Positions 318-63,416 of a stretch of DNA of 64,000 nucleotides are shown piece after piece. The DNA is from a virus. The notes under the pieces are model-generated. The model did no database searches, was not told where the DNA came from, and was given only the letters and a program-made list of their open reading frames with translations. The stretch spans positions 64,001 through 128,000 of the IMG/VR virus record IMGVR_UViG_3300031595_000166; one strand, given 5' to 3'. Position 1 is the first letter of the stretch. Each line of letters opens with the position of its first letter. A program made the translations under genes and the position numbers.

Positions 318-641
318 CTATAATAGTAGTAAATACTTTTCCAGATCCTCAGGAGAGACAAACCTCTCCCATCGTTTTCCTTTGTATGCAATATCTTTAT
401 ACCAGTGTTGCTTCTTTGTTATACCAACACTCACTCGAACTCTATGATCGAATGGAAAATAATAACTGTTGAAGTTAGCGTAAGTGTATAATTTTCCAGA
501 CAGCTCAAACACATATATGATACTGATTTGTCCTGCACTACTGAATGGAGCCGTATCACGTAGTCTATGCCAATGTATCTTATGGTTAGCTTCCTTTGGC
601 GTCCGGCACATTGGTTCTTTGCAAGAAGGGCATCGTGTCAT
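318..641 (-). CDS. CPxC zinc-finger-like protein with C-terminal LLLL tag (divergent)
   Basis: N-terminal CPSC, C-terminus EDLEKYLLLL. Confidence 0.7.
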   Translation of the reverse strand: MTRCPSCKEPMCRTPKEANHKIHWHRLRDTAPFSSAGQISIIYVFELSGKLYTYANFNSYYFPFDHRVRVSVGITKKQHWYKDIAYKGKRWERFVSPEDLEKYLLLL

Positions 642-834
642 TTTCTTTTTTCGTCAGGAAAATACTTCCACAATATGAATAAACACAAGCCCCAATATAA
701 ACTTGCTTGAATAATACTATTCGCTAAATACCAATGTGCTCCATATGGGTTGCCATAAGTCATTTTGAGATATGATCTTCTACCATTTGCAATGAACAAC
801 ATCAATGACATTATGGAAAGAACAATGCGAGTTT

Positions 835-1047
835 TCATTTTTTGATAGCGGCGAAGTTCTGATCTTCCGTAATGTAATTTCCAAGTTCCAATCCTTGACA
901 CAACGCCCAACATTCATTGGCAGTATCCAGTTTGATTACTCGATCATAGATATTGATCATTGCAGGATATGTTTTTATTGCGCGAAGTTGAGCAATAACA
1001 TCATCAACCTTCAACATGTCGGTAATGATTTTGTATGATTCGCTCAT
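835..1047 (-). CDS. hypothetical protein
   Basis: ATGA-coupled ORF in minus-strand operon. Confidence 0.55.
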   Translation of the reverse strand: MSESYKIITDMLKVDDVIAQLRAIKTYPAMINIYDRVIKLDTANECWALCQGLELGNYITEDQNFAAIKK

Positions 1048-1274
1048 TCAATAACTCTTACTTTGAAGTCCGCATCGTCTATTTTCTTGACCCACAACAT
1101 CGCTTTGCCGTCAAACGACCTACACGCCAGCCAAACGCCCGGAGTCGCGCCACGATAGGGCTCCGTCGTTTCCTGCCGTAGGATCCAACGATCCCCGTGA
1201 TAGGAAGCCCGCTTCTTACCTTGTTCGTTTCGTGGAATGAGTTCTACGAATGTGAATTTTTTTTGACGAGCCAT
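1044..1274 (-). CDS. hypothetical protein
   Basis: Coupled ORF in minus-strand operon. Confidence 0.6.
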   Translation of the reverse strand: MARQKKFTFVELIPRNEQGKKRASYHGDRWILRQETTEPYRGATPGVWLACRSFDGKAMLWVKKIDDADFKVRVIE

Positions 1275-1531
1275 TACATCAACACCAATAGTTTTTTAAG
1301 TTTTTCCATTTGATTCAAAAACGGAATAAAATCGTCCTGCGTTAAAATAATTTGATTAGCGGGGATATTAATAGTAATCCCGTCTTCAACAAGACATTCT
1401 TTTCCATCAGTCCAATTTTCATCATCATCTTTAAATTGCACTGTTATTTGGTAAGTAGCATAATTGTCTAAAACCATTTTTTTGACAACCAATCTCGAAT
1501 CTTCGGTTAGATTCAATACGATGGTATTCAT
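1274..1531 (-). CDS. hypothetical protein with C-terminal tag
   Basis: Ends MEKLKKLLVLM. Confidence 0.65.
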   Translation of the reverse strand: MNTIVLNLTEDSRLVVKKMVLDNYATYQITVQFKDDDENWTDGKECLVEDGITINIPANQIILTQDDFIPFLNQMEKLKKLLVLM

Positions 1532-1869
1532 TACTTCCTACCCTTCACTTCCTTCACTGTATCAAGTGTGCCAGCATTCACAATTGGAATGATTGGCTCA
1601 TCCTTGATTTTTTCCATCATCTCTGGCATTCGTTTTCGATATGCTTCAATTTCTTCAAGTCGTTCATCATCAAGGCTATGTTCAATCTCAAACTCATTCC
1701 TATACTCGTCAATCTGATTTTGAATCCGTCTTTGACATTCGCGAGCTTCAACAAGCGAATCTTCAATCTCAACTAATTCCTTCTTCTTGGAGAGATATAT
1801 CACTGTGTAATGAGCAATATCATTTGTTGCGACGGCAAGTTGCGAATTGAGTTTTTCAATTTTGGTCAT
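1531..1869 (-). CDS. coiled-coil hypothetical protein
   Basis: Likely start MTKIEKL at ATGA overlap; heptad-rich. Confidence 0.55.
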   Translation of the reverse strand: MTKIEKLNSQLAVATNDIAHYTVIYLSKKKELVEIEDSLVEARECQRRIQNQIDEYRNEFEIEHSLDDERLEEIEAYRKRMPEMMEKIKDEPIIPIVNAGTLDTVKEVKGRK

Positions 1870-3154: not shown

Positions 3155-3155
3155 T

Positions 3156-3545
3156 TTACACCGCGGTTAGTTTATACTTCTTGCCATCAATCTCAACTTC
3201 TTTACCATCACAAGGATCGGGTCGCTTGTGTAGTTTTGCAACTTCAAGTTTCCAATTGGCTTCGGAATAATATATGCCATTGAGATACCAATATTTGGTA
3301 CCATTAGCAAGCTCAACAGCAGGACCATCTTTCCGATGATATTTGCCATTGAGATACCACCACTTGTTTCCATTAGCAATCTCAATAGCAGCAGGACCGT
3401 CTTCCCGATGATATCTGCCATTGAGATACCAGTGTTTGTCTCCATTAGCATTCTCAATGGCAGGTCCATCTTCCCGATGAAGATTGCCATCGAGATACCA
3501 TTCACGAGTTCCGTTGTCGTAAACCTTTACAGTGTATTCAATCAT
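3156..3545 (-). CDS. HREDGPA beta-hairpin repeat protein (untagged form)
   Basis: WYLNG.xHREDGPAIE repeats; ends GKEVEIDGKKYKLTAV rather than the tag. Confidence 0.85.
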   Translation of the reverse strand: MIEYTVKVYDNGTREWYLDGNLHREDGPAIENANGDKHWYLNGRYHREDGPAAIEIANGNKWWYLNGKYHRKDGPAVELANGTKYWYLNGIYYSEANWKLEVAKLHKRPDPCDGKEVEIDGKKYKLTAV

Positions 3546-6946: not shown

Positions 6947-8016
6947 TTATACGCCAATAATTTCATAAGGTTATCAACCTGCATCTCTGCAAAATACTCC
7001 TTGAAAGAATGAACTTTTTTTGCTCGCAATGTAAATAACGCGCCAGAACACTTTGACTTTACGGCTTGCAGTGCGAATGCTTTTTGCTCTGGAATGTCCT
7101 TGATAGCGTCATATTCAGTTTCAAGTTCTGCAATTAGATTGTGCAGTCTGCTTTGTGCTTCATCGAACGCTGGCTTGTATTCAGGAAACGCAATCAACAC
7201 TTCCGGCATTTCTCCTGTTCGCGCAATCTCAACGATTGACTTCTGCGACATCAATCCGTCTTTGGCGTGATGCAACAAGACATAGCCTGGATGCTTGATC
7301 TTTACCCTATTGAACTTTGAATCAACAATAACATAACCTTCTTGTTCCAATGGATTCATTTGCTTGAATGACTCAATACAAGCATCGAAACTGTTCAACG
7401 GAAACTCTTTTACAATTGGGCAAGGGATATATTGTTGTGCTTCTTTTGCAGTTAGTTCCTGCAATGTAATTAGATTACGAGCGCCAAGCAATGTGAGGCT
7501 CGGTTCTTGGTATCGAACTACGATTCTATTTAGCTGTGATGTCAGTTCGAAAAAGAAGCAGATACCACAATTAGGATCTGGTAATTGATACTTGAATGTA
7601 TCCCAGAATAATTTTTGGAATGTAATACCAAAACCGTTGACATCACCGCCAGCGTCCGGCGTTCCAGTTGTTGAAACATGCCATTCACCATTATATGGCC
7701 AGAGACAACTCAAACTTCCATCCACTTTGCATTGAACACGAGCGGTATTCCAATCGATTGTTGCTGCGTGTCCTTCACCCCAGTTAAAAAACTTCTGAAA
7801 ACTCATACATCGGACTGCCCAATCAGCGTTCTCATCCAAAATAATTCCACGACACTCACGAACGATTTGTTCCGAGAACGGTGAATCGATTTGATTATAC
7901 TTGAACAAGACAAGATTGCCGTATGTTGAATGACGCTTTGCATCAATAAAATACTTGTCGGCTAATTCATCGAATGAATAACCGGAGCGAAGGAAGTTTT
8001 GAATTAATAATGTCAT
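6943..8016 (-). CDS. T4 Rnl1-like RNA ligase
   Basis: ECRGIIL, KFFN, motif I KVDGS, FEL, EGYVI, RVKIK. Confidence 0.9.
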   Translation of the reverse strand: MTLLIQNFLRSGYSFDELADKYFIDAKRHSTYGNLVLFKYNQIDSPFSEQIVRECRGIILDENADWAVRCMSFQKFFNWGEGHAATIDWNTARVQCKVDGSLSCLWPYNGEWHVSTTGTPDAGGDVNGFGITFQKLFWDTFKYQLPDPNCGICFFFELTSQLNRIVVRYQEPSLTLLGARNLITLQELTAKEAQQYIPCPIVKEFPLNSFDACIESFKQMNPLEQEGYVIVDSKFNRVKIKHPGYVLLHHAKDGLMSQKSIVEIARTGEMPEVLIAFPEYKPAFDEAQSRLHNLIAELETEYDAIKDIPEQKAFALQAVKSKCSGALFTLRAKKVHSFKEYFAEMQVDNLMKLLAYK

Positions 8017-8453
8017 ATCAGTATCAGATACTTTTGCAAGTTTTCTTTTCCATAGATTCGTTTGTTATCAAGTTGTGGAATGTGTTTATTATTGATATAG
8101 TAGTAAGTTCTACCATCATCAGCCCATTCACAAGCAGGTCCGTCTTCTCGATGATACTTGTTATTGAGAAACCAGTATTTGTTTCCGTTAGCATACTCAA
8201 CAGCATGACATGTCAATCCCGTTTCGGGATTGATGTCTTCTCGATGAAGTTTGCCATTGAGATACCAAAATTTGCTTCCATTAACATACTCAACAGCAGG
8301 TCCGTCTTCTCGATGAAGTTTGCCATTGAGAAACCAAGATTTGTCTCCATTAGAATACTCAACAGCAGGTCCGTCTTCTCGATGATATTTGTCATTGAGA
8401 TACCAAAATTTGTTTCCATTAGCATCAATTTTACATTCTGTAATATTAGGCAT
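8013..8453 (-). CDS. HREDGPA repeat protein with tagged tail
   Basis: Repeats plus IPQLDNKRIYGKENLQKYLILI. Confidence 0.85.
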   Translation of the reverse strand: MPNITECKIDANGNKFWYLNDKYHREDGPAVEYSNGDKSWFLNGKLHREDGPAVEYVNGSKFWYLNGKLHREDINPETGLTCHAVEYANGNKYWFLNNKYHREDGPACEWADDGRTYYYINNKHIPQLDNKRIYGKENLQKYLILI

Positions 8454-13569: not shown

Positions 13570-14094
13570 TTAGAGAAGGATTAGATACTTTGTGAGATTG
13601 TCTTTTCCATAAATGCGTTTGTTATCAAGTTGTGGAATGTATTTACCATTGATCCAGTATCGAGTTTTTCCATTAGAATACTCAATAGCAGGTCCGTCTT
13701 CCCGATGATATTTGCCATTGAGACACCACCACTTGTTTCCATTAGCATACTCAATAGCAGGTCCGTCTTCCCGGTGAAGATTGCCATTGAGATACCATTC
13801 TTTGGTTCCATTAGCAAACTCAACAGCAGGCATCGTCAATCCAGTTTCTGGATTGATATCTTCCCGATGAAGATTGTCATTGAGATACCAATATTTGGTT
13901 CCATCAGCACACTCAATAGCAGGTCCGTCTTCCCGGTGAAGATTGCCATTGAGATACCATTCTTTGGTTCCATCAGCACACTCAATAGCAGGACCATCTT
14001 TCCGATGAAACTCGTCATTGAGATACCAAAATTTGTTTCCATCAGTATGGATTCTACACTCAGATTTTTGAGAACTATCTATGACCGCCGCCAT
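13570..14094 (-). CDS. HREDGPA repeat protein with tagged tail
   Basis: Five repeats, ends YGKDNLTKYLILL; start uncertain. Confidence 0.8.
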   Translation of the reverse strand: MAAVIDSSQKSECRIHTDGNKFWYLNDEFHRKDGPAIECADGTKEWYLNGNLHREDGPAIECADGTKYWYLNDNLHREDINPETGLTMPAVEFANGTKEWYLNGNLHREDGPAIEYANGNKWWCLNGKYHREDGPAIEYSNGKTRYWINGKYIPQLDNKRIYGKDNLTKYLILL

Positions 14095-14719
14095 GACCAC
14101 CACCCCCATGTGAGCCACCAGCGCCCGCAGAATGCCCACCAGCGTGCGACTGTGGCGCTGAATGCTGTTGTGGCGCCGAGTGTTGCTGAGGAGTAGTATG
14201 CTGTTGAACTGAATGTTGTTGAACTGAATGTTGTTGAACTGAATGTTGTTGTGGTGCAGAGCGTTGCATATTATGTTGTGGTGCTACATGTTGTTCTGGC
14301 GTTCCATTGCGATGATACCCACCACCAGAGTTTCGTGCCCAACCATGAGACTCACCCCAACCGCGTTCATGATAGAACGAATTATAATGTTCATGATAGC
14401 CGGGGTAATATCCAGCATGATACCCATTGTTAGACCAATAGCCATGTGGTCCGAACCACATTCCATAATAAGAATCAAAATACAATACCCCACCATCGAC
14501 AACATAATAACTACCGCAGAACTCTCGTTCGCCGAAGCTATCAACAATTATTGTGCAACCTTCTGTCAATCCAGTAGATGGGAATACCGATCCATCAGTG
14601 CCAACCACAACCTCTTGTGCATGTAATGTTGCGGCACAACCAGTCATTGCTAATCCCATTGACAATGCTAACATCAATACCATATTCTTCATGTGATTAT
14701 TCTCCTGTATAGTTTTCAA
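14075..14719 (-). CDS. lipoprotein with Gly/His/Gln-rich tail
   Basis: MTGC lipobox; QQHSV/QQHSA repeats; GGGHGGGHR end. Confidence 0.7.
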   Translation of the reverse strand: MKTIQENNHMKNMVLMLALSMGLAMTGCAATLHAQEVVVGTDGSVFPSTGLTEGCTIIVDSFGEREFCGSYYVVDGGVLYFDSYYGMWFGPHGYWSNNGYHAGYYPGYHEHYNSFYHERGWGESHGWARNSGGGYHRNGTPEQHVAPQHNMQRSAPQQHSVQQHSVQQHSVQQHTTPQQHSAPQQHSAPQSHAGGHSAGAGGSHGGGGHGGGHR

Positions 14720-21850: not shown

Positions 21851-22150
21851 CTACATCAACAATTTTATCTGATCAATATACTTGAATATCTTTTCATCAG
21901 ATTGAAACTCATCAAAATACTTACTAATACCTTTCCCGCTAATATATCCCCAATTACCAAGTTCATCATCACAACGTCTAACTATAACGCAACTATCTAT
22001 TCTAACAACAATGTTATTGCTTACAAAATAATGATACTCGTGATCATCAGAACTATTACATCTGTTATATACAGAAGCATATGTTATAATTATTTTTTTA
22101 TCACATACGGGACAATCCATCAATATCCTCTTGGATTTAGATACTGCCAA
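21851..22150 (-). CDS. CPxC protein with divergent C-terminal tag
   Basis: MDCPVC...KYIDQIKLLM. Confidence 0.6.
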   Translation of the reverse strand: MAVSKSKRILMDCPVCDKKIIITYASVYNRCNSSDDHEYHYFVSNNIVVRIDSCVIVRRCDDELGNWGYISGKGISKYFDEFQSDEKIFKYIDQIKLLM

Positions 22151-23027: not shown

Positions 23028-23234
23028 TCATTTTAGTAATAGAAGTTTTTCAATTCGTTCTTTGTCAAGATAGACAAAACCTTTAAGCGTTAATAGTCTT
23101 CCTTCTCCGGGCTTATATATCTCAACTGTGGTCAATCCATCTATACAATTATCATACCAGATAGTATATGGTGGCAGATCATGCGTGCAATGATGATCGT
23201 GCTTGATTATTTTGTTGCAGATTGGACAGTTCAT
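23028..23234 (-). CDS. CPxC cassette protein, tagged
   Basis: MNCPIC...LDKERIEKLLLLK. Confidence 0.85.
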   Translation of the reverse strand: MNCPICNKIIKHDHHCTHDLPPYTIWYDNCIDGLTTVEIYKPGEGRLLTLKGFVYLDKERIEKLLLLK

Positions 23235-45116: not shown

Positions 45117-45329
45117 TTACTTCAATAGCATCAACATATCTATATACTCTTCATCCAATCGTTTTGGACTATTCAATGTAATCCTACTATTCTTATCCGA
45201 GTAATTTGCTTGTATATAGATACGAACCTCAGTATCCCAATATACGAACACAAGATACTTACCAACAGTATGACTGCATGAAGCATAATCATATAGACAG
45301 TAATCACAAACTGGACAAGTATAGCTCAT
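45117..45329 (-). CDS. CPxC cassette protein, tagged (EYIDM subtype)
   Basis: CPVC...PKRLDEEYIDMLMLLK. Confidence 0.85.
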   Translation of the reverse strand: MSYTCPVCDYCLYDYASCSHTVGKYLVFVYWDTEVRIYIQANYSDKNSRITLNSPKRLDEEYIDMLMLLK

Positions 45330-45556
45330 TTCAATAACAATAACCCTTCAATACGCTCCTCATTCAGCAACGTTAATTTTTTAATACTCAGTAGTAATGG
45401 TGAGAGACGTTCTCTTGGATATATGTCAATCAATTCATTGGGAGAATCTACACCATAATAACCCACGCCATAATACACATCGTATTTACCATATCTATGA
45501 AAACAACACGATGACGATGACAGATACATATGACAATCTGGGCAAGTATAATTCAT
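45326..45556 (-). CDS. CPxC cassette protein, tagged
   Basis: CPDC...LNEERIEGLLLLK. Confidence 0.85.
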   Translation of the reverse strand: MNYTCPDCHMYLSSSSCCFHRYGKYDVYYGVGYYGVDSPNELIDIYPRERLSPLLLSIKKLTLLNEERIEGLLLLK

Positions 45557-45918
45557 TTCAATAACAATACCATATCAATATACTCTTCACTCAATCTCTT
45601 TGGAGACTTCAATGTTAGTAAAAAACCATTCGTGTCTCCGGCTTTATTAGCTCTATACACATTAACATAACCACCAATAAGAACAAACACAACATACTTA
45701 TTGAGGGTGTGTCTACATCTAACATTTGTCATATCTCTTGAATCAAAAAACTAACTAATCTTGAATAGGATCTTGCTCCAATTATTGATATAACATTTGA
45801 CTGACATATCACTGTATATAAGAACACCATATTTACCTATGCTATGATGACAATATAATACGCTTGGATCAGTATAAGATTCCTTATACATAATGAGATT
45901 ACAGTTAGGACATTTCAT
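45553..45918 (-). pseudogene. two partial CPxC cassettes joined across an in-frame TAG
   Basis: MKCPNC...ILFKIS-TAG(45751-45753)-FFDSRD...PKRLSEEYIDMVLLLK. Confidence 0.65.
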
Positions 45919-46157
45919 TTCAATAACAGCATCATATCAATATACTCTTCATCCAAGCGCTTTGGAGATTTCAATCTCAAAATACGACTGGACCTTATTG
46001 TTATTGGGTATAAATATACTCCAACTGCACCGTCGGAAAATGTTATGATATAGTATTTACCAATATCATGTTCACACAGAACATCACACAGAACATCAAA
46101 CTGGTCTTCATCAAAAAAACTTGTATTCTTATCACAGACCGGACAGGTATAACTCAT
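45915..46157 (-). CDS. CPxC cassette protein, tagged (EYIDM subtype)
   Basis: CPVC...PKRLDEEYIDMMLLLK. Confidence 0.85.
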   Translation of the reverse strand: MSYTCPVCDKNTSFFDEDQFDVLCDVLCEHDIGKYYIITFSDGAVGVYLYPITIRSSRILRLKSPKRLDEEYIDMMLLLK

Positions 46158-46369
46158 TTTAGCAACAGCATCTTATCGATATAATCTTCACTCAATGTCT
46201 TTGGACTATTGAGTGTTAGTATTCGCATTGGGGATGGATCGGTAGTTTTATTATTCCAAACATTCACACTTCCGGTATCATAAATATGGACTGAGTATCT
46301 ACCAATCAGATGATGATGGTATCTTGGCAAGGGCGAGCTATTATTACAGACGGGGCAGATATAACTCAT
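46154..46369 (-). CDS. CPxC cassette protein, tagged (EYIDM subtype)
   Basis: CPVC...LSEDYIDKMLLLK. Confidence 0.85.
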   Translation of the reverse strand: MSYICPVCNNSSPLPRYHHHLIGRYSVHIYDTGSVNVWNNKTTDPSPMRILTLNSPKTLSEDYIDKMLLLK

Positions 46370-46560
46370 TTTAGCAACAGCATCATATCAATATACTTTT
46401 CACTCAATCTTTTTGGAAAAGACAGGTTCAACAAGCATCTTTCTCCATCGTAGATGTAAGCCTCGCCATCAAAATGAATATAAGCAGTATATAAACCAAC
46501 GGTATGTTCATGCAGTAGCATCGTTATAATATAATTACAGACGGGACAAGTATAATTCAT
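46366..46560 (-). CDS. CPxC cassette protein, tagged (EYIDM subtype)
   Basis: CPVC...LSEKYIDMMLLLK. Confidence 0.85.
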   Translation of the reverse strand: MNYTCPVCNYIITMLLHEHTVGLYTAYIHFDGEAYIYDGERCLLNLSFPKRLSEKYIDMMLLLK

Positions 46561-46763
46561 TTTAGTAGCAATATCATATCAATATATGTTTCATCTAAAC
46601 GTTTTGGACGTTCTAGTCTAACAACAAACTTCCCAGTATACCAGATAGAAATCAGACCGTCGTTATACACATAAGCAGTATATTTACCCAGCCTATGCGT
46701 ACATGTCTTTTCAATGTATTTTGATTGAAAATCTTCATTGCAGACGGGACAGATATAATTCAT
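46557..46763 (-). CDS. CPxC cassette protein, tagged (EYIDM subtype)
   Basis: CPVC...LDETYIDMILLLK. Confidence 0.85.
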   Translation of the reverse strand: MNYICPVCNEDFQSKYIEKTCTHRLGKYTAYVYNDGLISIWYTGKFVVRLERPKRLDETYIDMILLLK

Positions 46764-46796: not shown

Positions 46797-47972
46797 ATGC
46801 ATTACGGTGATTTATACATTCAAGCAAAACTCTTTTACAAGATGGCAGAGGAAACTCTCGACATTCTTCCGGGGAACTTGTATAAATTCGTTATGTACAA
46901 AACACAAGGGAAAATTACACCGGAAGTAGCAGATAATTTCGTCGTTGCAAACAAGACAACATTGTCTAAACTTAAGTTCGTTGATTGGAGTGGTAATTTC
47001 GAAAAGAATGGTAGTAAATTATTTGGTGAAGATGGAGATGGAGAACGATATATGATCTCAACTGAATCTACACCGCCGAAGAACTCACATGTCAAACAAT
47101 CATATATACTGCAAGGGAAACATCCAATACCAACACTTTATGTATTCAGATATGAGCGTGGTAGCGATGTAGAGTTTCCAAAAGAACTCGGACATTACTT
47201 GTTTCTAATGCCAGCGTTATGCGATATGTTCGATGTTGCGTATCCATATTACTTTCAAGATCCAGATCATATGAATGACTTTGTCAAGTTCGTTCAAGAA
47301 AATAAGGCTAAGATTGATTCCATTCGATCTCGATTCCAACACGAGCCAAAACCATTAGGAAGCGGATCAGATGGCTTTGTTTTTGCGATTGGCAAGGATA
47401 GGATATTGAAGATATTCAAACAGCAATTCTCATATCAAGCGGCAAAAGAATCTGCAAACCGAATATGGAAACAACACGGCATAGCAGGAACCGAAGCATA
47501 CATTGATGACATTGGTCAGATTGGAAACTTCGGAGAACACCCGGTATATTATTATATACAAGAACGAATGGAAACCGTGTTCAATTTCTTGAAGAATGAT
47601 GTTGACTTCAATGGAAATAGAAGAGACAGAAAAATGTCTCAAATAACAGACTTCATGAAAGATATAGCAAAAACTATTAAGAACGATCCAAACTATCCTG
47701 CTATATACAGGAACAAAAACAATCCAAGAATTGGTAATGCGATCAGGTCATTAGCGGAGAGAGTGTATAATCGAATTGTCTATTTTGTAAACGAAGAGAT
47801 TACTGATGATTTCGCTGGTAAATTACAACCTGATTGGATGCTAAAACTAATTGAAGAGATGGCTGGAAAACTAATCACGGACAGAATGGATTTGCGATCA
47901 TATAATGTTGGGATTACAGGGAACGGTTATTTGAGATTCTTTGATCCTGCATTTGATCCAAAAGAATTATAG
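46797..47972 (+). CDS. atypical protein-kinase-like protein, paralog of 12355..13566
   Basis: LGSGSDG, RILKIF, TEAYIDD, YY.QERM, DLRSYNVG, FFDPAF. Confidence 0.75.
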   Translation: MHYGDLYIQAKLFYKMAEETLDILPGNLYKFVMYKTQGKITPEVADNFVVANKTTLSKLKFVDWSGNFEKNGSKLFGEDGDGERYMISTESTPPKNSHVKQSYILQGKHPIPTLYVFRYERGSDVEFPKELGHYLFLMPALCDMFDVAYPYYFQDPDHMNDFVKFVQENKAKIDSIRSRFQHEPKPLGSGSDGFVFAIGKDRILKIFKQQFSYQAAKESANRIWKQHGIAGTEAYIDDIGQIGNFGEHPVYYYIQERMETVFNFLKNDVDFNGNRRDRKMSQITDFMKDIAKTIKNDPNYPAIYRNKNNPRIGNAIRSLAERVYNRIVYFVNEEITDDFAGKLQPDWMLKLIEEMAGKLITDRMDLRSYNVGITGNGYLRFFDPAFDPKEL

Positions 47973-48191
47973 TAGCAACAGCATCTTTTCAATATACTCT
48001 ATGTTCAGTTTATCGTATGATAATACTTCAAAAATGAACTGATGACCATAATACACGCGCGACACACCATCATCATAAACAACAACAACATATGGACTAA
48101 TGTTATGCTGGTTCGTACAAAACTTTCTATCTGGACGCTGATTTGATATAATCATATCGTCTGCATTACAGACCGGACATCTTTTACTCAT
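47967..48191 (-). CDS. CPxC cassette protein, tagged
   Basis: CPVC...LNIEYIEKMLLLL. Confidence 0.85.
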   Translation of the reverse strand: MSKRCPVCNADDMIISNQRPDRKFCTNQHNISPYVVVVYDDGVSRVYYGHQFIFEVLSYDKLNIEYIEKMLLLL

Positions 48192-48460
48192 ATCAATAAC
48201 ATCAACTTATCTAAACGATCTTTGCCAATTCTATTTTCAAGATAGGTAATCAGTTGATCTCTGAACACACCTGCTTTGGTATCTCCAATGAACTCAATGA
48301 TCTCTATTGTGTCTCTACCGTCAAGAATGATTTTATTACTGCGATCAAACTCTTTTTTTGTTAGAGGTTCCCATTCATTGAATCCAATACCGGGCTTCAA
48401 CTTACTACATGCAAGGCTAATATCTAAATGCAGTTCGCCCTTTTTGTTATACCTAAACAT
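48188..48460 (-). CDS. hypothetical protein with C-terminal tag
   Basis: Ends GKDRLDKLMLLI. Confidence 0.7.
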   Translation of the reverse strand: MFRYNKKGELHLDISLACSKLKPGIGFNEWEPLTKKEFDRSNKIILDGRDTIEIIEFIGDTKAGVFRDQLITYLENRIGKDRLDKLMLLI

Positions 48461-49241: not shown

Positions 49242-49415
49242 CTACATCAGCAACAATATATTTTCCCACCGTCTATATACTTGTGGCTTATATTTTTTGA
49301 GGTATCTAATGTTTTCGCTACGAGCATCGTACGAGATATAATAATGCTTAGCCCTCAATAAATGTTCAATTATTTCTTCGTCGCTTGCAGTTTCAATCCA
49401 AGATTTTGTTCCCAT
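49242..49415 (-). CDS. 57-aa helical protein with tag (not in ORF track)
   Basis: MGTKSWIETASDEEIIEHLL...YLKKYKPQVYRRWENILLLM. Confidence 0.7.
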   Translation of the reverse strand: MGTKSWIETASDEEIIEHLLRAKHYYISYDARSENIRYLKKYKPQVYRRWENILLLM

Positions 49416-49418: not shown

Positions 49419-49655
49419 TTATCTCAATAGTAAGAATTTTTCAATTCGTTCTTCATCAAGAAAGACCAACTTACTAAATTGAAGCAGAACAATACTTTGT
49501 TCTACAACTAGTAGTACTCTTGTCATATATTCACCGGACATACTTACATTATCGTATAATACTTTATATTTTCCTACTAAATGATCGCAATATGGAACAC
49601 CATTGCCAGACGCAGACATATTGTAATCACAGATTGGGCAATGTAATGTCTTCAT
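49419..49655 (-). CDS. CPxC cassette protein, tagged
   Basis: CPIC...LDEERIEKFLLLR. Confidence 0.85.
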   Translation of the reverse strand: MKTLHCPICDYNMSASGNGVPYCDHLVGKYKVLYDNVSMSGEYMTRVLLVVEQSIVLLQFSKLVFLDEERIEKFLLLR

Positions 49656-49867
49656 TTTAGTAGTAGTAATTTCTCTATGCGCTCTTCATCCAAGAGACAC
49701 TGTTTTTCAAGATACAATACAAAAATGTTTTCGCACCAAACATTTATCCATTCAACACAATAATAGACAGTATATTTGCTATACATATGACGGCAAAAAT
49801 ACTTTGTACTACTCCAATACAATTCTTTATTACAGTGGGGGCAATTCATTTTAGTAGTAGGATACAC
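49652..49867 (-). CDS. CPxC cassette protein, tagged
   Basis: CPHC...LDEERIEKLLLLK. Confidence 0.85.
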   Translation of the reverse strand: MYPTTKMNCPHCNKELYWSSTKYFCRHMYSKYTVYYCVEWINVWCENIFVLYLEKQCLLDEERIEKLLLLK

Positions 49868-50856: not shown

Positions 50857-51102
50857 CTATATGAGGAGTAAGAGTTTTTCAATTCGTTCTTCGTCAATAA
50901 AAACTAAGTCATTCATTATAGTAATTAGTCTCAATAATCTTCTGTGTTTTTTATTAGAAGTAAATTCATACAATCTCGTTGTTGTTGAGCCGTCATCGTT
51001 CAGATCATAAACTGCTCTATATTTAGAACCAATATAGTGGGCGCACCAATCACGATTGCGATCATCTTTTCTCATCACGAAACCACATACAGGACAATTC
51101 AT
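50857..51102 (-). CDS. CPxC cassette protein, tagged
   Basis: CPVC...IDEERIEKLLLLI. Confidence 0.85.
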   Translation of the reverse strand: MNCPVCGFVMRKDDRNRDWCAHYIGSKYRAVYDLNDDGSTTTRLYEFTSNKKHRRLLRLITIMNDLVFIDEERIEKLLLLI

Positions 51103-51299
51103 GTTAGCAACAACAGTTTTTCAATTCGTTCTTCATCAACCAGAATCGACCTTGGGAAAAACCCTTTGAACTGAAAACCTTTTGATGGTAGCAATTCGAA
51201 TATAGTCGTACCACCACCAGAATACATAACAAGGTATTTACCAACAAAATGCTCGCAGTAATCGTTGTGCATATATAATTTACAGATAGAGCAATTCAT
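51099..51299 (-). CDS. CPxC cassette protein, tagged
   Basis: CSIC...VDEERIEKLLLLT. Confidence 0.85.
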   Translation of the reverse strand: MNCSICKLYMHNDYCEHFVGKYLVMYSGGGTTIFELLPSKGFQFKGFFPRSILVDEERIEKLLLLT

Positions 51300-51514
51300 G
51301 TTAGCAACAATAGTTTTTCAATTCGTTCCCAACTAATCAACCCACTCATTTTTAGTAGTGGGCGCACATGCTGTATATCAGTTGAAAACACCTCCGTCGA
51401 ACAAGAACCATCCGCTCTGTAATCGTAGCATACTTTTATGGATCGATGGTTGTCTGCCCAATGATCGCAATAATTAGGAGCGCGTATTTCACGATCACAG
51501 ATAGGACAATTCAT
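51296..51514 (-). CDS. CPxC cassette protein, tagged
   Basis: CPIC...WERIEKLLLLT. Confidence 0.85.
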   Translation of the reverse strand: MNCPICDREIRAPNYCDHWADNHRSIKVCYDYRADGSCSTEVFSTDIQHVRPLLKMSGLISWERIEKLLLLT

Positions 51515-54056: not shown

Positions 54057-54467
54057 TTATACCAACAGCAAAAACTTTTGCAGGTTTTCTTTTCCATAGA
54101 TGTGTTTGTTATCAAGTTGTGGAATGTAATTGCCATTGATCCAGTATCGAGTTTCTCCATTAGCAAACTCAGTAGCAGGTCCGTCTTCTCGATGAAGTTT
54201 GCCATTGATATACCAGTATTTGCTTCCATTAGCAAGCTCAATAGCAGGTCCGTCTTCTCGATGACGATTGTCGTTGAGATACCAGCGTTTGTCTCCATTA
54301 AAATACTCAATAGCAGGACCATCTTTCCGATGATATTTGCCATTGAGATACCAATATTTGCTTCCATCAGCATACTCAATAGCAGGACCGTCTTTACGGT
54401 GAAGTTTGCCATTGAGATACCAGTGTTTGTCTCCATTAGCATGGACTTTACATTCAGGCTTATTCAT
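54057..54467 (-). CDS. HREDGPA repeat protein with tagged tail
   Basis: Ends YGKENLQKFLLLV. Confidence 0.85.
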   Translation of the reverse strand: MNKPECKVHANGDKHWYLNGKLHRKDGPAIEYADGSKYWYLNGKYHRKDGPAIEYFNGDKRWYLNDNRHREDGPAIELANGSKYWYINGKLHREDGPATEFANGETRYWINGNYIPQLDNKHIYGKENLQKFLLLV

Positions 54468-54739
54468 ATCAGGAGTAAAAACTTTTGCAAGTTTTCTTTT
54501 CCATAGATATGTTTGTTATCGAGTTGTGGAATGTAATTGCCATTGATCCAGTATCGAGTTTCTCCATTAGCAAACTCAGTAGCAGGTCCGTCTTCTCGAT
54601 GAAGTTCGCCATTGAGATACCAGTATTTGATTCCATTAGCATACTCAACAGCAGGACCATCTTCTCGATGAAGATTGCCGTTTAGATGCCAGTGTTTGTC
54701 TCCATTAGCATGGACTTTACATTCAGGCTTACCGTTCAT
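54464..54739 (-). CDS. HREDGPA repeat protein with tagged tail
   Basis: Start MNGKPECK; ends YGKENLQKFLLLI. Confidence 0.85.
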   Translation of the reverse strand: MNGKPECKVHANGDKHWHLNGNLHREDGPAVEYANGIKYWYLNGELHREDGPATEFANGETRYWINGNYIPQLDNKHIYGKENLQKFLLLI

Positions 54740-55497
54740 AGACACTGACATGCTGATTCGCTAAACACTTTTTGTACTCTATAACCATCAATTTCTTCGG
54801 TATATGCTTCGCACAGATCCCCAATCTCTTGACTAACAGTATAATAACCAGTATAGTTATCAGGGTCAGTACTGGACTCAGCTAATTCGTGAGAGATTAC
54901 TTCATCAACAAAATCATAATTAGAGTTGTATTGAATGATAGCGAAGGTATATCGATTGCTACCATATGCCGTATGACTATGGTATCCATTCCAACTATTA
55001 CTTACCATTGTAGTTGTAATGACATTCGGCGGAAGCATAATGACATAGATTGTATTGTCATTTGGGAATGGAATAGTTCCAGCGAGAATATTATTGTTGA
55101 TATCGGCAACAAGAATGCTATCATCAACAGTGATTTGTTTTGAGATTAGATTGAACCCCGAGTTTACATCAAGTTTAGGTTCGCTATAATGATCAACTGG
55201 GTCAAGCGTTCCAGACTCAATACCATACTCGCTCAATCGTTGAAGCACGGTTCCAAGATCAAGCATATTATGCCACGCGTTTTGATAGTATTGTGGCTCA
55301 ATGAAGTTAGTGCCAGTCGTCCAATAACTACCATCGTAAATAAAATGCATCTCGGGTGTTTTTAGAAGCCAACCCGATGGATCATGGCGATAGACTTCAT
55401 ATTGACATGAAGGATTTGGATCAGTGTTTACTACCTGATCAATGTTTCCGGCACAACCAATGAATGAGAGGAGGATGATTGGGAGGAGGAGTTTCAT
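54736..55497 (-). CDS. lipoprotein with zincin-like HExxE motif
   Basis: FIGC lipobox; GYHS, SHELAESSTDP, EIGDLC. Confidence 0.65.
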   Translation of the reverse strand: MKLLLPIILLSFIGCAGNIDQVVNTDPNPSCQYEVYRHDPSGWLLKTPEMHFIYDGSYWTTGTNFIEPQYYQNAWHNMLDLGTVLQRLSEYGIESGTLDPVDHYSEPKLDVNSGFNLISKQITVDDSILVADINNNILAGTIPFPNDNTIYVIMLPPNVITTTMVSNSWNGYHSHTAYGSNRYTFAIIQYNSNYDFVDEVISHELAESSTDPDNYTGYYTVSQEIGDLCEAYTEEIDGYRVQKVFSESACQCL

Positions 55498-58280: not shown

Positions 58281-58646
58281 TTATAGCAGTAATAATGTTA
58301 TTGCAAGTTTCTCTTTACCATAGATTCGTTTGTTATCGAGTTGTGGAATGCGTTTATCATTGATATAGTATTCAGTTGTTCCATCAGAACACTCAATAGC
58401 GGGACCATCTTCTCGATGACATTTGCCATTGAGATACCATTCTTTGTATCCATTAGCATACTCAATAGCAGGACATGTCAATCCCGTTTCGGGATTGATG
58501 TCTTCTCGATGACGTTTGCCATTGAGATACCAACATTTGGTTCCATCAGCATACTCAATAGCAGGTCCATTTTCCCGATGAAGATTGCCATTGAGATACC
58601 AGCGTTTGGTTCCATTAACATCAATTTTACATTCAGGCTTACTCAT
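58281..58646 (-). CDS. HREDGPA repeat protein with tagged tail
   Basis: Ends YGKEKLAITLLLL. Confidence 0.85.
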   Translation of the reverse strand: MSKPECKIDVNGTKRWYLNGNLHRENGPAIEYADGTKCWYLNGKRHREDINPETGLTCPAIEYANGYKEWYLNGKCHREDGPAIECSDGTTEYYINDKRIPQLDNKRIYGKEKLAITLLLL

Positions 58647-59005
58647 ATTAGTAGTAGTAATTTTTGCAAGTTTTCTTTACCATAGATACGTTTGTTATCA
58701 AGTTGATGAATGTATTTGCCATTGATATAGTAGTAAGTTCTACCATCAGCAAACTCAACAACAGGTCCGTCTTCTCGATGAAGATTGCCATTGAGATACC
58801 AAGTTTTGGTTCCATCAGCATCCTCAATAGCAGGTCCGTCTTCTCGATGAAGCTTGCCATTGAGATACCAAGATTTATTTCCATTAGCATACTCAATAGC
58901 AGGACCATCTTCTCGATGAAACCTGTCATTGATATACCAATATTTGTCTCTATTTTTGTAGAGTTTGTAATATGGCTTGCCAAGTAGTTTGTTTAGCCAG
59001 TTCAT
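58643..59005 (-). CDS. HREDGPA repeat protein with tagged tail
   Basis: Ends YGKENLQKLLLLI. Confidence 0.85.
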   Translation of the reverse strand: MNWLNKLLGKPYYKLYKNRDKYWYINDRFHREDGPAIEYANGNKSWYLNGKLHREDGPAIEDADGTKTWYLNGNLHREDGPVVEFADGRTYYYINGKYIHQLDNKRIYGKENLQKLLLLI

Positions 59006-59298
59006 ATCAGTATCAGATACTTTTGCAAGTTTTCTTTTCCATAGATATGTTTGTTATCGAGTTGTGGAATGTAATTGCCATTGATCCAGTATCGAGTTTC
59101 TCCATTAGCATACTCAATAGCAGGACCATCTTCCCGATGAAGTTTGCCATTGAGACACCAGTATTTGTCTCCATTAGCATACTCAACAGCAGGCATCGTC
59201 AATCCAGTTTCTGGATTGATTTCTTCTCGATGCCATTTGCCATTGAGAAACCAGCGTTTGTTTCCATTAGCATCAATTTTACATTTAGACTTATTCAT
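59002..59298 (-). CDS. HREDGPA repeat protein with tagged tail
   Basis: Ends YGKENLQKYLILI. Confidence 0.85.
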   Translation of the reverse strand: MNKSKCKIDANGNKRWFLNGKWHREEINPETGLTMPAVEYANGDKYWCLNGKLHREDGPAIEYANGETRYWINGNYIPQLDNKHIYGKENLQKYLILI

Positions 59299-59783
59299 AT
59301 CAGTATCAGATACTTTTGCAAGTTTTCTTTTCCATAGATGTGTTTGTTATCAAGCTGACAGATGTGATTACCATTGATCCAATATCGAGTTCTTCTATCA
59401 ATGTATTCAACTGCTGGACCATCATCATTATGAAGTTTGCCATCTAAGAACCATCGTTTGGTTCCGGTATTATACTCAACAATCAATCCATCTTCTCGAT
59501 TAAGTTTACCATTGAGATACCATTCTTTTGTTCCATCTCCAAGCTCGATAGCTGGACCATCGTCTCTATGAAGCTCGTTATGTTGATACCAATATTTATC
59601 TCCATTAGCAACAACAACAACAGCGGGTCCATTTCTGCGATGAATCTTATTATTCATATACCAGATTTTAGTTCCGTTAGGAAACTCAATAGCCGGACCA
59701 TCTTCGCGATGACGCTTATCATCAACGCGCCAATGTTTGACTCCGTAAAAATCAATTCTGAATTGATGAACCCCCGTCTCCAT
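59295..59783 (-). CDS. HREDGPA repeat protein with tagged tail
   Basis: Ends YGKENLQKYLILI. Confidence 0.85.
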   Translation of the reverse strand: METGVHQFRIDFYGVKHWRVDDKRHREDGPAIEFPNGTKIWYMNNKIHRRNGPAVVVVANGDKYWYQHNELHRDDGPAIELGDGTKEWYLNGKLNREDGLIVEYNTGTKRWFLDGKLHNDDGPAVEYIDRRTRYWINGNHICQLDNKHIYGKENLQKYLILI

Positions 59784-60343: not shown

Positions 60344-60808
60344 CTACAATAACAACAAGGCGGCTGCAAGATTCTCTTTACCATAGATAGTTCTGTTGTC
60401 TAATTTCTGAATGTATTTACCATCAATCCAGTATTGCTTTATACCATTCGGATTCTCAATGGCTGGACCATCATCTCTATGCCTTAGATTATTCTTATAC
60501 CAATATCCAGAACCATCAGGATATGTCATAGCAGGAAGACTCAATCCAGTTTCAGGATCAATTTCATCTCGATGAGTTTTGCCATGCATATACCAATCTT
60601 TTGATCCGTCATTCCATTCAATAGCTGGAAGCAATAGACCAGTTTTTAGATCTACTTCAAAACGATGACATTGATTATTGATATACCAGCATTTTGTTCC
60701 ATCCACGAACTCAATGGCTGGACCATGTTCATTATGAAGCTTGCCATCCAACTTCCAGCGCTTATCACCATACTCATCAATTACACAAACAGGTCGTTTA
60801 ATACCCAT
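60344..60808 (-). CDS. HREDGPA repeat protein with tagged tail
   Basis: Ends YGKENLAAALLLL. Confidence 0.85.
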   Translation of the reverse strand: MGIKRPVCVIDEYGDKRWKLDGKLHNEHGPAIEFVDGTKCWYINNQCHRFEVDLKTGLLLPAIEWNDGSKDWYMHGKTHRDEIDPETGLSLPAMTYPDGSGYWYKNNLRHRDDGPAIENPNGIKQYWIDGKYIQKLDNRTIYGKENLAAALLLL

Positions 60809-60852
60809 ATCTTTCCAGTAAAATACCCAGCTAAGGGCGTGATATTATTATA

Positions 60853-61158
60853 CTAAATTAGGAGCAATGCTGCTGCGAGTTTATTTTTACCGTAGATATA
60901 CTTGTTATCTAACTGCTGGATACGATTATCGTTGATCCAGTATTGAGTTTTTATTCCACCACCAGCGAACTCAACGGCTGGCCCATCAATTCGATGCCGC
61001 CGATTATTGATGAACCATGACTTGAATCCGTAGTTATCAACATATGCTGGAAGAGATAGACCAGTTTCAGGATCAATTTCATCACGATGGAAGTGTCGAT
61101 CTCTTCCTTCCAGTTGCCAATATGTTGAAGTTGGAGTGGTTATTTTGATTGATTTCAT
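60853..61158 (-). CDS. HREDGPA repeat protein with tagged tail
   Basis: Ends YGKNKLAAALLLI. Confidence 0.85.
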   Translation of the reverse strand: MKSIKITTPTSTYWQLEGRDRHFHRDEIDPETGLSLPAYVDNYGFKSWFINNRRHRIDGPAVEFAGGGIKTQYWINDNRIQQLDNKYIYGKNKLAAALLLI

Positions 61159-61189
61159 AGCTTGGATTGAGATTATATCCCTTGTTTAA

Positions 61190-62758
61190 TTAGTTGAGAA
61201 AACTATACGCGGAATTAGTAAAAAACTCCTGAAAATTTGGATCCAAAACTGATTTTGTAAAAAACTCTTTTGCTTCTTGAAACTTACCAGTGTCAAAACG
61301 ATCACCAACTTCGCTTTGAATGATGAGCATTTCTTCATCAATAGTTTTGAGTAGCAGTTCTTTCGTCAATACCGTGTCATCAATTATACAGTTATGATAT
61401 AGCCAACTCCAAGTAAGCCCAAAATTAATCTGATATGTCGCTGCGTCTTCCATCAAGTTATAAATTGCTACTGCTCCAATACCACGCAACCATGATTCAA
61501 GATACTGAATTGCTACACGGATATTACTACGAAGACCGCTCATAGTTATAGCACCACGATGAGGTTCCAGCAACTCTTCTTCGGTAATTACATAATTACA
61601 ATACCGGTCCATCTGATTATTTTGTGGCATCAACCAGTCGAATACTTGGCGGACAACATTAACTAACCCAGGATGTGCAATCCAGGCTGCTGATGCTCCA
61701 AGTCTTATTTCACGCATCTTGTCTAATCTAACTTTTTCCATTGCTTCTTCGTTAGCAAGCTTATCTCCCTTGACTGGGATCTGTGCCGCCATTCCACCGA
61801 TAGCCATAATACCACGTTTATGACAAGTCTGAACAAGCAATTTACAATAAGCATTTAGAAACGCTTTGTCCATCGTAATCTGTGATCTGTCTGGCAAAAT
61901 CATATCAGAACGGTTAGAAAACTTCTTGATGAACGAATATACATAATCATACCGAGCCATATTCATACCGACGATATAATCTTTCAATGCCCATACCACT
62001 TCGTCCATCTCAAACGCTAATGTAATCGTCTCAACTAAAACGGTAGCCTTGATCGTTCCAGTCTTCAATTTGAACTTTTCCTCAGCAAACCAAAATATAT
62101 CAGACCACAAGCGAGCCTCTTCCCAATTCTCCATCTTCGGAAGATAGAAGTATGCACTCGTTCCATTATCCATCAACTCTTTGATGTTATGGTAAAAATA
62201 CAATCCAAAATCCATCAATGCAGCAGGAATAGGTTCACCGTCAATCGTGAAGTGTTTCTCAATCATATGCCAGCCGCGAGGACGAACCATCAACACGGCA
62301 GTCTTGTCATTCAACTTGTATTCCTTGGCATCCGTCTTGAATGTAATTGTCTTTCTAACCGCATCCATCAAGTTGATCTGACCCTGAACAATGTTACCCC
62401 ATGTAGGAGAATTACTGTCTTCAAGATCTGCCATGAATACATTAGCACCAGAGTTCAACGCATTGATGATCATCTTCCTATCAGTCGGACCAGTGATCTC
62501 TACTCGTCTATCTTTCAAGTCTGCTGGAATAGGCGCTGCAATGTATCTCGAATTACGAACCCATTCCGTATCCTTTCGGAAGTGTGGAAGCAATCCGACA
62601 TCGAAGAGACTTTGTTTCACATGTCGAGCGGTAAGTAGTTCTTTTACTCTTGGAGAGAATTGCTGAACCAATGATGCAATGAACTCTATTGCACCGTTTG
62701 TGAATACTCGATTGTGTTTTTCTAAGTCTTTGATGTCGATTTTCATAATTGCCTTCAT
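61190..62758 (-). CDS. aceB: malate synthase A
   Basis: DRRVEITGP, ALNSGA..FMADLED, VRPRGWH, YLPKME, GGMAAQIP, LMEDAAT. Confidence 0.95.
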   Translation of the reverse strand: MKAIMKIDIKDLEKHNRVFTNGAIEFIASLVQQFSPRVKELLTARHVKQSLFDVGLLPHFRKDTEWVRNSRYIAAPIPADLKDRRVEITGPTDRKMIINALNSGANVFMADLEDSNSPTWGNIVQGQINLMDAVRKTITFKTDAKEYKLNDKTAVLMVRPRGWHMIEKHFTIDGEPIPAALMDFGLYFYHNIKELMDNGTSAYFYLPKMENWEEARLWSDIFWFAEEKFKLKTGTIKATVLVETITLAFEMDEVVWALKDYIVGMNMARYDYVYSFIKKFSNRSDMILPDRSQITMDKAFLNAYCKLLVQTCHKRGIMAIGGMAAQIPVKGDKLANEEAMEKVRLDKMREIRLGASAAWIAHPGLVNVVRQVFDWLMPQNNQMDRYCNYVITEEELLEPHRGAITMSGLRSNIRVAIQYLESWLRGIGAVAIYNLMEDAATYQINFGLTWSWLYHNCIIDDTVLTKELLLKTIDEEMLIIQSEVGDRFDTGKFQEAKEFFTKSVLDPNFQEFFTNSAYSFLN

Positions 62759-63051
62759 ATCAGTAGTAGTAATTTTTGCAGGTTTTCTTTTCCATAGATA
62801 CGTTTGTTATCAAGTTGTGGAATGTGATTACCATTGATATAGTAGTAAGTTCTACCATCAGCAAGCTCAACAGCAGGTCCGTCTTCTCGATGACATTTGC
62901 CATTGAGACACCATTCTTTGTATCCATTAGCATACTCAATAGCAGGACATGTCAATCCCGTTTCGGGATTGATGTCTTCTCGATGAAGTTTGCCATTGAG
63001 ATACCAACATTTGGCTCCATTAGCACTGACTTTATATTCAGGCTTACTCAT
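62755..63051 (-). CDS. HREDGPA repeat protein with tagged tail
   Basis: Ends YGKENLQKLLLLI. Confidence 0.85.
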   Translation of the reverse strand: MSKPEYKVSANGAKCWYLNGKLHREDINPETGLTCPAIEYANGYKEWCLNGKCHREDGPAVELADGRTYYYINGNHIPQLDNKRIYGKENLQKLLLLI

Positions 63052-63416
63052 ATTAGTATAAGATACTTTTGCAGGTTTTCTTTTCCATAAATTCGTTTGT
63101 TATCAAGTTGTGGAATGTGTTTATCATTCATCCAGTAGTAAGTTCTACCATCAGCACACTCAACGGCAGGACCATCTTCTCGATGGAGCCTGTCATTGAC
63201 ATACCAATATTTGGTTCCATTAGCATGTTCAATGGCAGGTCCATCTTCTCGATGACGTTTGTCATTGAGATACCAGCATTTGGTTCCATCAGCATTCTCA
63301 CCAGCAGGTCCGTCTTCCCGATGAAGTTTGCCATTGAGATACCAATGTAAGCTTACGTTTTTGTAGCGTTCGTAATATGGCTTACCAAGTAGTTTGTTTA
63401 GCCAATTCGTAAGCAT
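63048..63416 (-). CDS. HREDGPA repeat protein with tagged tail
   Basis: Ends YGKENLQKYLILI. Confidence 0.85.
   Translation of the reverse strand: MLTNWLNKLLGKPYYERYKNVSLHWYLNGKLHREDGPAGENADGTKCWYLNDKRHREDGPAIEHANGTKYWYVNDRLHREDGPAVECADGRTYYWMNDKHIPQLDNKRIYGKENLQKYLILI

Follow-up and report, generated by a model that had tools for sequence, protein, structure and literature searches.

What does it mean when many small proteins of one phage, otherwise unlike each other, end in the same few residues? The question is raised by a 64,000-nt window (bases 64001-128000) of the 157,262-bp virus record IMGVR_UViG_3300031595_000166. An earlier note, made from the sequence of the window alone, had claimed that a shared C-terminal pattern ends 33 CPxC proteins, 12 HREDGPA-repeat open reading frames (ORFs), the pair at 35258 and 49242, and singletons at 318, 1274, 35886 and 48188. 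We confirm this pattern, here called the tail. All the coordinates named for it hold, the ORF at 21851 (ending IDQIKLLM) being a weak variant at 1.2 bits. The window has a G+C content of 38% and carries nearly all its genes on the minus strand. The full record, hereafter the contig, is 32% complete according to CheckV and shows no visible virion genes. It is syntenic with a second IMG/VR record (G001; 406,470 bp, 95% complete) encoding portal, terminase and a tubulin/PhuZ-like protein (103740-105152, minus strand; PF00091, 1.2e-16), and because of this near-complete relative we assign the window to a ~400-kb jumbo phage. DNA of the window was found in rhizosphere metagenomes, no RNA data set was listed as containing it, and no close GenBank phage was found.

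The tail and its carriers

The tail spans ten residues with the consensus [DE]-x-[ILV]-[EDQ]-K-[LYF]-L-[LIMV]-L-x-stop. A position matrix over the last 12 residues, built from the termini and applied at a threshold of ≥10 bits, matched 82 of the 325 codon-scored genes on the contig, along with 9 further real ORFs dropped by the gene filter. Tail-bearing ORFs thus number 51 in the window and 91 on the 157-kb contig (~27% of ORFs), and the pattern extends along the whole 157,262 bp. The same termini had served to train the matrix, so the valid controls are the internal and off-frame counts, namely 1/43,079 internal positions and 0/753 other off-frame ORFs. The profile scan suggested by the earlier note therefore revealed strong C-terminal enrichment, and the sole internal match on the contig lies at the junction of a natural in-frame CPxC-CPxC fusion (32351-32794; tail DKERIEKLLFIT). 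The motif is strictly C-terminal.

Residue conservation was scored with the tested position left out, using tails of five genomes (the 157-kb contig, G001, G003, L012 and L014). Position -2 was Leu in 173/173 tails and never I, V, M or F. Lys occupied position -6 in 145/185 tails and was kept in 39 of 44 body clusters, and position -10 was acidic in 145/181. All carriers are small (44-229 amino acids, aa), and no enzyme or structural protein is among them. The claim that the recognisable enzymes lack the tail holds: the NAD-dependent DNA ligase, the helicases and the RNA ligase all end without it.

The bodies to which the tail is attached appear unrelated. BLAST clustering after removal of the last 12 residues gave 20 clusters on the contig and 44 across the five genomes. 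Pairwise hhalign comparisons of the CPxC, HREDGPA-repeat, family 2 (MF..DTDF..KYxDEVEKYLLLI) and CERH (CERHxxLLILQ) families with tails removed returned probabilities ≤1.2% for every pair, which upholds the claim of unrelated carrier families. None of these four families has a Pfam family. The HREDGPA repeats presumably resemble MORN-type hairpin repeats; the Pfam MORN model gave no MORN family in these proteins at E up to 1, and two of them matched DUF6745 only, below cut-off (E 5e-5 and 6e-4). Four HREDGPA-repeat paralogues (window 3156-3545; L006:4583-4969, 6679-7092 and 7336-7746; minus strand) are tail-less and combine the repeat array with a different conserved C-terminal module (..EANWKLEVAKL..DPCDGKEVEIDGKKYKLTAI; ending of the type ..DGKKYKLTAI). 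Because the repeat array also occurs with another ending, the tail is separable from the HREDGPA domain.

Bodies evolve much faster than tails, as the earlier proposal of variable bodies with a constant tail had implied. Identity was 39% in bodies and 67% in tails for the best cross-genome family matches, 26% and 62% for CPxC paralogues, and 27% and 59% for family 2 paralogues, so that tails are conserved about twice as well. The invariant residues of family 2 (K, Y and L) all lie within the tail. At most, the bodies might form a library of target-binding domains, as had also been suggested.

Occurrence in other phages

Beyond the contig, the tail recurs in G001 and in three further phages from metagenomes; over the five genomes it ends at least 44 body clusters. 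In G001, 58/586 gene termini matched the matrix vs 3/116,596 internal positions. Carriers there are again 44-229 aa long, and none is encoded at 100-220 kb, where very large proteins (up to 2,286 aa) form a block adjoining the portal and terminase genes. In G003 (120 kb, 33% G+C) and the more distant contigs L012 and L014, the tail is found on several families, CPxC-like proteins included. Family expansions differ by phage, with CPxC and repeat proteins expanded in the contig, and CERH and family 2 proteins in G001. The CPxC expansion is comparable in kind to that of Bacillus phage G, which has ~35 zinc-ribbon copies (jumbo-phage review, PMC7824862).

Homologues of family 2 numbered 42 among 5.8 billion proteins, and in 28 of the 30 metagenomic ones inspected the tail stands at the terminus in exactly the same register. 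For the repeat family, the last 36 residues were used in an exhaustive profile search, which retrieved 38 proteins; 24 of 25 inspected end in register. In these same 28/30 and 24/25 homologues, the chain ends exactly one residue past Leu -2. No longer or fused family 2 forms that could reveal a partner were found, which is weak evidence. Matches from an IMG/VR pattern scan in G002, G004, G005, G006, L020 and L023 were rejected as chance matches in non-coding frames, leaving the 406-kb and 120-kb relatives as the only true ones. A tblastn search of a GenBank phage collection with a CPxC protein from the window gave no match, and we found no description of the tail motif in the searchable literature.

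Family 2 genes also have a recurrent neighbourhood. In both phages a family 2 gene adjoins a tandem array of four to five paralogues (~470-560 aa; contig 17747-24249, L001/L002; G001 338647-346464) that share the invariant core ..MSMRGI.SCQSW... The three compared with Pfam and PHROG had no match, and the one compared with the PDB had no match there.

Peptide and codon conservation

The conserved object is the peptide, because all six Leu codons are used in tails, 30 CPxC tails comprise 29 distinct 15-nt strings, and tails are present without a following gene. The earlier claim that the constraint falls on the peptide and not on the DNA is thus borne out for the peptide, but synonymous codons are not free. 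Codons -4 to -1 rarely end in T (7, 2, 1 and 5%, respectively, vs 43% in bodies), as at 23028-23042 and 49652-49666 of the window. CTT makes up 3% of the Leu codons in tails, whereas the same genes use it for 26% of the Leu residues in their bodies (p = 4e-16); at -3, Ile is encoded by ATA in 11/13 cases. This bias also occurs in G001 and is still present where the next start does not overlap; even where no downstream gene is close, purines occupy 72-94% of the third positions in codons -4 to -1, compared with ~42% in bodies. Avoidance of T runs fails to explain the bias because it holds at -2, where the next codons mostly begin with A or C.

Several nucleic acid explanations were rejected. 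A Shine-Dalgarno site for the next gene does not fit, as the tail lacks GGAG, GGAG/AGGA is intergenic where genes do not overlap, and tails persist without a following gene. The diversity of the 15-nt strings likewise excludes a recombination cassette, and matches to a separate complementary RNA of the (UAG)n type were antisense of tails only. A promoter scan of the CPxC region gave no excess over shuffles. Start/stop coupling is more frequent for tailed genes than for other small ORFs (56% vs 31%, and 52% vs 35%), a comparison set that includes spurious ORFs. Tails with no gene starting within 25 nt make up about one-fifth of the total and look no different, and 63 untagged genes are coupled without a tail. 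The only tRNAs common to the phage and G001 are tRNA-Ile(UAU) and tRNA-Lys(UUU) (contig 46753-46828 and 150258-150332; G001 372830-372903 and 1488-1562), which read ATA and AAA; in tailed genes, these are the codons that most often come last before an overlapping ATGA junction.

Predicted structure

Alignments of paralogues or homologues served as input for AlphaFold2. The CPxC model (mean predicted local distance difference test (pLDDT) 89) begins like a zinc ribbon, continues as a meander of four strands and closes with a helix at residues 61-70 (pLDDT ~96). The family 2 model (mean pLDDT 94, predicted template modelling score 0.87) comprises three short strands and four helices, the last spanning residues 87-100. 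A buried core helix with a different role in each family was the outcome that the earlier note regarded as fatal to a shared tag. The models go part of the way towards it, in that the tail is predicted to be the last, very confident helix (pLDDT ~96) of compact domains in two unrelated families. Fold searches with both models (PDB by Foldseek and VIA-align; BFVD) returned nothing above Z 5 or E 0.001, and a protein atlas search gave no lead. On a helical wheel, positions -8, -5, -4 and -1 form the apolar face, -2 borders it, and -10, -7, -6 and -3 lie opposite. Conservation of this second face and of the exact chain end across families is not something that a purely structural helix would obviously need.

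Interpretation

We tentatively read the tail as a portable docking helix engaging one common, probably host, partner, a reading to which we give somewhat less than an even chance. Many small, fast-evolving accessory proteins would use the ten-residue C-terminal α-helix to engage this partner. Its -8, -5, -4 face would pack on the protein's own small domain, whereas Leu -2, the near-invariant Lys -6, the acidic residues at -10 and -7 and the chain end would present a constant surface to a shared pocket. The specific side chains favour docking because L, I, V and M would be interchangeable at ordinary core positions. Docking is also favoured by the strictly terminal position with its fixed register to the chain end, the unrelated carriers, the faster change of bodies than of tails, the separability of the tail from the repeat array, and its restriction to small proteins. 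A host protein would be the most likely partner because no protease, chaperone or clamp was recognised in the near-complete relative; alternatively, the partner may be a novel phage protein or the interior of a capsid or scaffold. Docking could then lead to degradation, sequestration, localisation or packaging.

Several results weigh against docking. The earlier note had envisaged a single hub (a protease, a chaperone, or an import apparatus of the capsid or a phage compartment), and none was found, the 95%-complete relative having no recognisable candidate. ClpP, Hsp70, Lon, chaperonin, S41 protease, beta clamp and T4 clamp had no match in G000, G001 and G003. The sliding-clamp models used (PF02916 and PF00712) could miss a divergent clamp. 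AAA gave one weak match in these three genomes, no AAA+ unfoldase was recognised in the phage, and there is no standalone BRCT protein, the only BRCT lying inside the DNA ligase. The reader, if it exists, is a host protein or an unrecognised phage protein. Furthermore, in both AlphaFold2 models the tail directly continues the compact fold as a highly confident last helix with no linker; known docking tails usually follow a flexible linker, and a helix of the core has no need of a reader. All five genomes share one tail consensus (cross-family tail identity 3.95/10 within genomes vs 3.97/10 between genomes), and no co-evolution signal points to a reader. Finally, the bias of the last four codons shows selection on something besides the peptide.

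The tail might instead serve structure alone, as a self-contained and very stable core or capping helix at the C-terminus; it would let tiny, fast-evolving domains fold and would have no common partner. Acidic residues would lie near the helix N-terminus, Lys -6 may pair with Glu -10 and the terminal carboxylate, and duplication and mosaic recombination would have spread the helix among families. An integral, confident last helix in two unrelated predicted folds, the failure to find a reader and a consensus without genome-specific drift all argue for such a cap, as does the repeat family, where the tail could close a solenoid and an alternative cap module exists. We nevertheless consider it somewhat unlikely, as a ten-residue helix is no independent folding unit and unrelated folds (zinc ribbon plus β-meander, β-hairpin repeats, β3-α4) would not all need the same side chains. 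Nor would a cap readily account for a Leu -2 that is never exchanged, a polar Lys -6 in most clusters, or a tail about twice as conserved as the remainder of the protein. A docking helix that serves one hub could also make the carriers an adaptor library, in which more than 40 families of small diversifying binders plug via the invariant-Leu helix into one host or phage hub, for instance an unfoldase, protease or packaging site, although we regard this elaborate version as unlikely.

The other alternatives explain fewer of the conserved features. Parsell, Silber and Sauer reportedly showed in 1990 that apolar C-terminal pentapeptides destabilise proteins in E. coli, and the ssrA tag likewise destabilises proteins. 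The apolar pentapeptide, free C-terminus and strictly terminal position of the tail, together with its restriction to small accessory proteins, would suit a degron or turnover timer that marks early proteins for host ClpXP, ClpAP, FtsH, Lon or a tail-specific protease and keeps their action brief. A degron, however, needs no conserved helix and would put no constraint on Glu -10, the aliphatic -8, Glu -7 or Lys -6. In addition, many tails end in Lys or Gln, and the models predict the tail as a folded part of its domain. We consider turnover quite improbable. Tails could also pair with each other to form dimers or mixed oligomers of small proteins. The natural CPxC-CPxC fusion retains its internal tail, and the Leu-rich helix may have more apolar surface than one small domain can bury. 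Yet ten residues are short for a zipper, ~90 different proteins mixing via one sticky helix would be hard to control, and the predicted monomers are already compact and confident. We consider such association very unlikely; a homodimer prediction for a CPxC protein gave no support, and counts neither way. The most improbable reading is that termination, or re-initiation at an overlapping start, is influenced in cis by the last ten residues (then in the ribosomal tunnel) and the last four codons. This would account for the codon bias, and the fixed distance to the stop codon, the purine-rich third positions, the coupling excess and the two shared tRNAs fit it. Against it stand the tails without a nearby gene start, the untagged genes that are coupled all the same, the spurious ORFs in the coupling comparison, and residues that are kept as a helix predicted to fit each fold.

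Comparison with known systems

The proposed docking helix can be set beside several known terminal tags. Encapsulation peptides of microcompartments and encapsulin cargo-loading peptides bring different cargo proteins to a single shell protein by means of a short amphipathic helix at a terminus or a C-terminal peptide, and the shells of encapsulins have the same HK97 fold as phage capsids. These peptides, however, sit on enzymes behind flexible linkers and have another consensus, whereas the carriers here are small non-enzymes with the helix predicted to lie within the fold, and no shell candidate was recognised. The SspB tail (the ClpX-binding LRVVK-COOH) and ssrA are aliphatic-rich extreme C-termini, sometimes Lys-ended, that are read by an AAA+ machine. 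An adaptor library of this kind would fit the idea of the earlier note; the sequence likeness is one of general character only, the SspB and ssrA peptides are bound in extended form, and no phage Clp or Lon was recognised here. Poxvirus ankyrin-repeat proteins are large paralogous sets of variable binders with a constant C-terminal PRANC/F-box-like module that plugs into a host hub. That module is a domain of ~30-50 residues with Skp1 as partner and is found in one family, in contrast to a decapeptide on at least 44 body clusters.

Of the described systems, two of phage T4 come nearest. Its gp43, gp33 and gp55 have C-terminal tails that bind the sliding clamp (PMC2988020, PMC7892883), and there, too, phage proteins of different kinds bind one hub through a shared C-terminal peptide that is short and partly hydrophobic. 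The T4 carriers, however, are a few replication and transcription proteins with a known hub (gp45), whereas here ~90 small proteins without annotated function carry the tail and the ligase and helicases lack it. The clamp tails are also extended, and the tail described here is predicted to be a folded helix. The T4 internal proteins bear a capsid targeting sequence (PMC3012670), likewise a constant short terminal peptide that serves as an address label on polymorphic small phage proteins. It is N-terminal and cut by the prohead protease, whereas the present tail is C-terminal in every case, and neither the repeat family nor family 2 has a shared prohead-protease-type L/I-x-E site before the tail. 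The tail lacks some defining features of each T4 system.

Tail carriers and other genes of the phage

Positions of the tail carriers are collected in Table 1. Four paralogues of ~145 aa (window 11457-12330 and 14885-15750, minus strand) with a conserved C-terminal CxxC (..FQCLSCKVL.., ..FVCSSCKFL..) stand outside the tail system.

Table 1. Tail carriers in the window, with one contrasting tail-less protein and one borderline case (window coordinates)
Feature	Position	Strand	Remark
CxxC singleton, 107 aa, tail EDLEKYLLLL	318..641	-	matrix, 22 bits
Singleton, 85 aa, tail EKLKKLLVLM	1274..1531	-	matrix
HREDGPA-repeat protein without tail (contrast); other module, ends ..DGKKYKLTAV	3156..3545	-	
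HREDGPA-repeat, tail ENLQKYLILI	8013..8453	-	
189-aa ORF, end IYGKDNLTKYLILL (repeat-family tail module)	13570..14139	-	
CPVC protein, end IDQIKLLM, borderline weak variant	21851..22150	-	1.2 bits
CPxC, tail KERIEKLLLLK	23028..23234	-	
CPxC, tail KERIEKLLLLK	23231..23464	-	
CPxC, tail EQRIEILLMLQ	24249..24467	-	
CPxC, tail EQRIETMLLLK	24464..24721	-	
CPxC, tail EEKIEKLLLLL	31207..31461	-	true start probably ATG at 31413, overlapping upstream stop
CPxC, tail EDRINTILLLK	31410..31685	-	
CPxC, tail EDRIEIMLLLK	31682..31888	-	
CPxC, tail EERIEKLLLLQ	31885..32154	-	
CPxC, tail EERIEKLLLLQ	32151..32354	-	
Fusion of two CPxC units, internal tail DKERIEKLLFIT, terminal tail EERIEKLLLLQ	32351..32794	-	
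CPxC, tail EKRINTILLLK	33232..33465	-	
CPxC, tail IERIEKLLVLK	33462..33686	-	
CPxC, tail KERIEKLLLLQ	33683..33904	-	
CPxC, tail EERIEKLLLLQ	33901..34110	-	
CPxC, tail LERIEQLFLLK	34107..34316	-	
CPxC, tail IERIEKLLLLK	34318..34527	-	
CPxC, tail FDRIEQLLLLK	34535..34753	-	
CPxC, tail EERIEKLSLLK	34763..35023	-	
CPxC, tail DERIEKLSLLK	35025..35285	-	
78-aa protein, hydrophobic N-terminal segment, tail DRWQKLLLLR	35258..35494	-	
Singleton, 159 aa, tail DRIRKMLILI	35886..36365	-	
CPxC, tail EQRIEKLLLLQ	36675..36938	-	
CPxC, tail EEYIDMLMLLK	45117..45329	-	
CPxC, tail EERIEGLLLLK	45326..45556	-	
CPxC-family, N-terminally short, tail EEYIDMVLLLK	45553..45732	-	
CPxC, tail EEYIDMMLLLK	45915..46157	-	
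CPxC, tail EDYIDKMLLLK	46154..46369	-	
CPxC, tail EKYIDMMLLLK	46366..46560	-	
CPxC, tail ETYIDMILLLK	46557..46763	-	
CPxC, tail IEYIEKMLLLL	47967..48191	-	
Singleton, 90 aa, tail DRLDKLMLLI	48188..48460	-	
Helical protein, 57 aa, tail RRWENILLLM	49242..49415	-	pairs with 35258
CPxC, tail EERIEKFLLLR	49419..49655	-	
CPxC, tail EERIEKLLLLK	49652..49867	-	AlphaFold2 model: pLDDT 89, helix 61-70 pLDDT ~96
CPxC, tail EERIEKLLLLI	50857..51102	-	
CPxC, tail EERIEKLLLLT	51099..51299	-	
CPxC, tail WERIEKLLLLT	51296..51514	-	
HREDGPA-repeat, tail ENLQKFLLLV	54057..54467	-	
HREDGPA-repeat, tail ENLQKFLLLI	54464..54751	-	
HREDGPA-repeat, tail EKLAITLLLL	58281..58646	-	
HREDGPA-repeat, tail ENLQKLLLLI	58643..59005	-	
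HREDGPA-repeat, tail ENLQKYLILI	59002..59298	-	
HREDGPA-repeat, tail ENLQKYLILI	59295..59783	-	
HREDGPA-repeat, tail ENLAAALLLL	60344..60808	-	
HREDGPA-repeat, tail NKLAAALLLI	60853..61158	-	
HREDGPA-repeat, tail ENLQKLLLLI	62755..63051	-	
HREDGPA-repeat, tail ENLQKYLILI	63048..63416	-	

The recognisable genes of the window and contig include a T4-type RNA ligase, the NAD-dependent DNA ligase and helicases. An NAD-salvage pair (NAMPT and an NMNAT-Nudix fusion; window 19263-21732, minus strand) and a GltX-like aminoacyl-tRNA synthetase (L002:16114-17538, minus strand) are typical of very large phages. Both glyoxylate-shunt enzymes are encoded: malate synthase (window 61190-62758, minus strand; Pfam 2e-97) and isocitrate lyase (L005:4182-5444, minus strand, contig 132182-133444; Pfam 1.3e-80). 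The nearest malate synthase in a search of genomes came from one Acidobacteriota metagenome-assembled genome (51% identity), which is insufficient to name the host. A four-gene cluster (window 39113-43996, minus strand) encodes a lipoprotein, a 583-aa membrane protein, an HlyD-like protein and a TolC-like protein. The 583-aa protein has a QRKRW motif and no Walker A and resembles a synthase-like glycosyltransferase; neither it nor the 370-aa protein of the cluster has a Pfam match, and the 583-aa protein also has no PDB match. The tail was considered as a type I secretion signal and rejected, since this glycosyltransferase-like protein beside the TolC-like and HlyD-like genes is not an ABC exporter.

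Implications

In a class of phages rich in small genes without known function, one ten-residue ending unites about a quarter of the genes of this fragment across unrelated folds, and does so in several genomes. The carriers thereby become a single experimental problem, namely what reads the helix. The purine bias at the last four codons hints at a link between protein ends and translation in packed phage operons. If there is no reader, many unrelated folds share a single minimal structural helix, which would be an unusual case of reuse. A reader, if there is one, would show how a giant phage organises a large, fast-evolving accessory set, and would provide a transferable tag. Were the carriers an adaptor library, they would allow the phage, in a programmable manner, to have many host proteins destroyed, sequestered or relocated.

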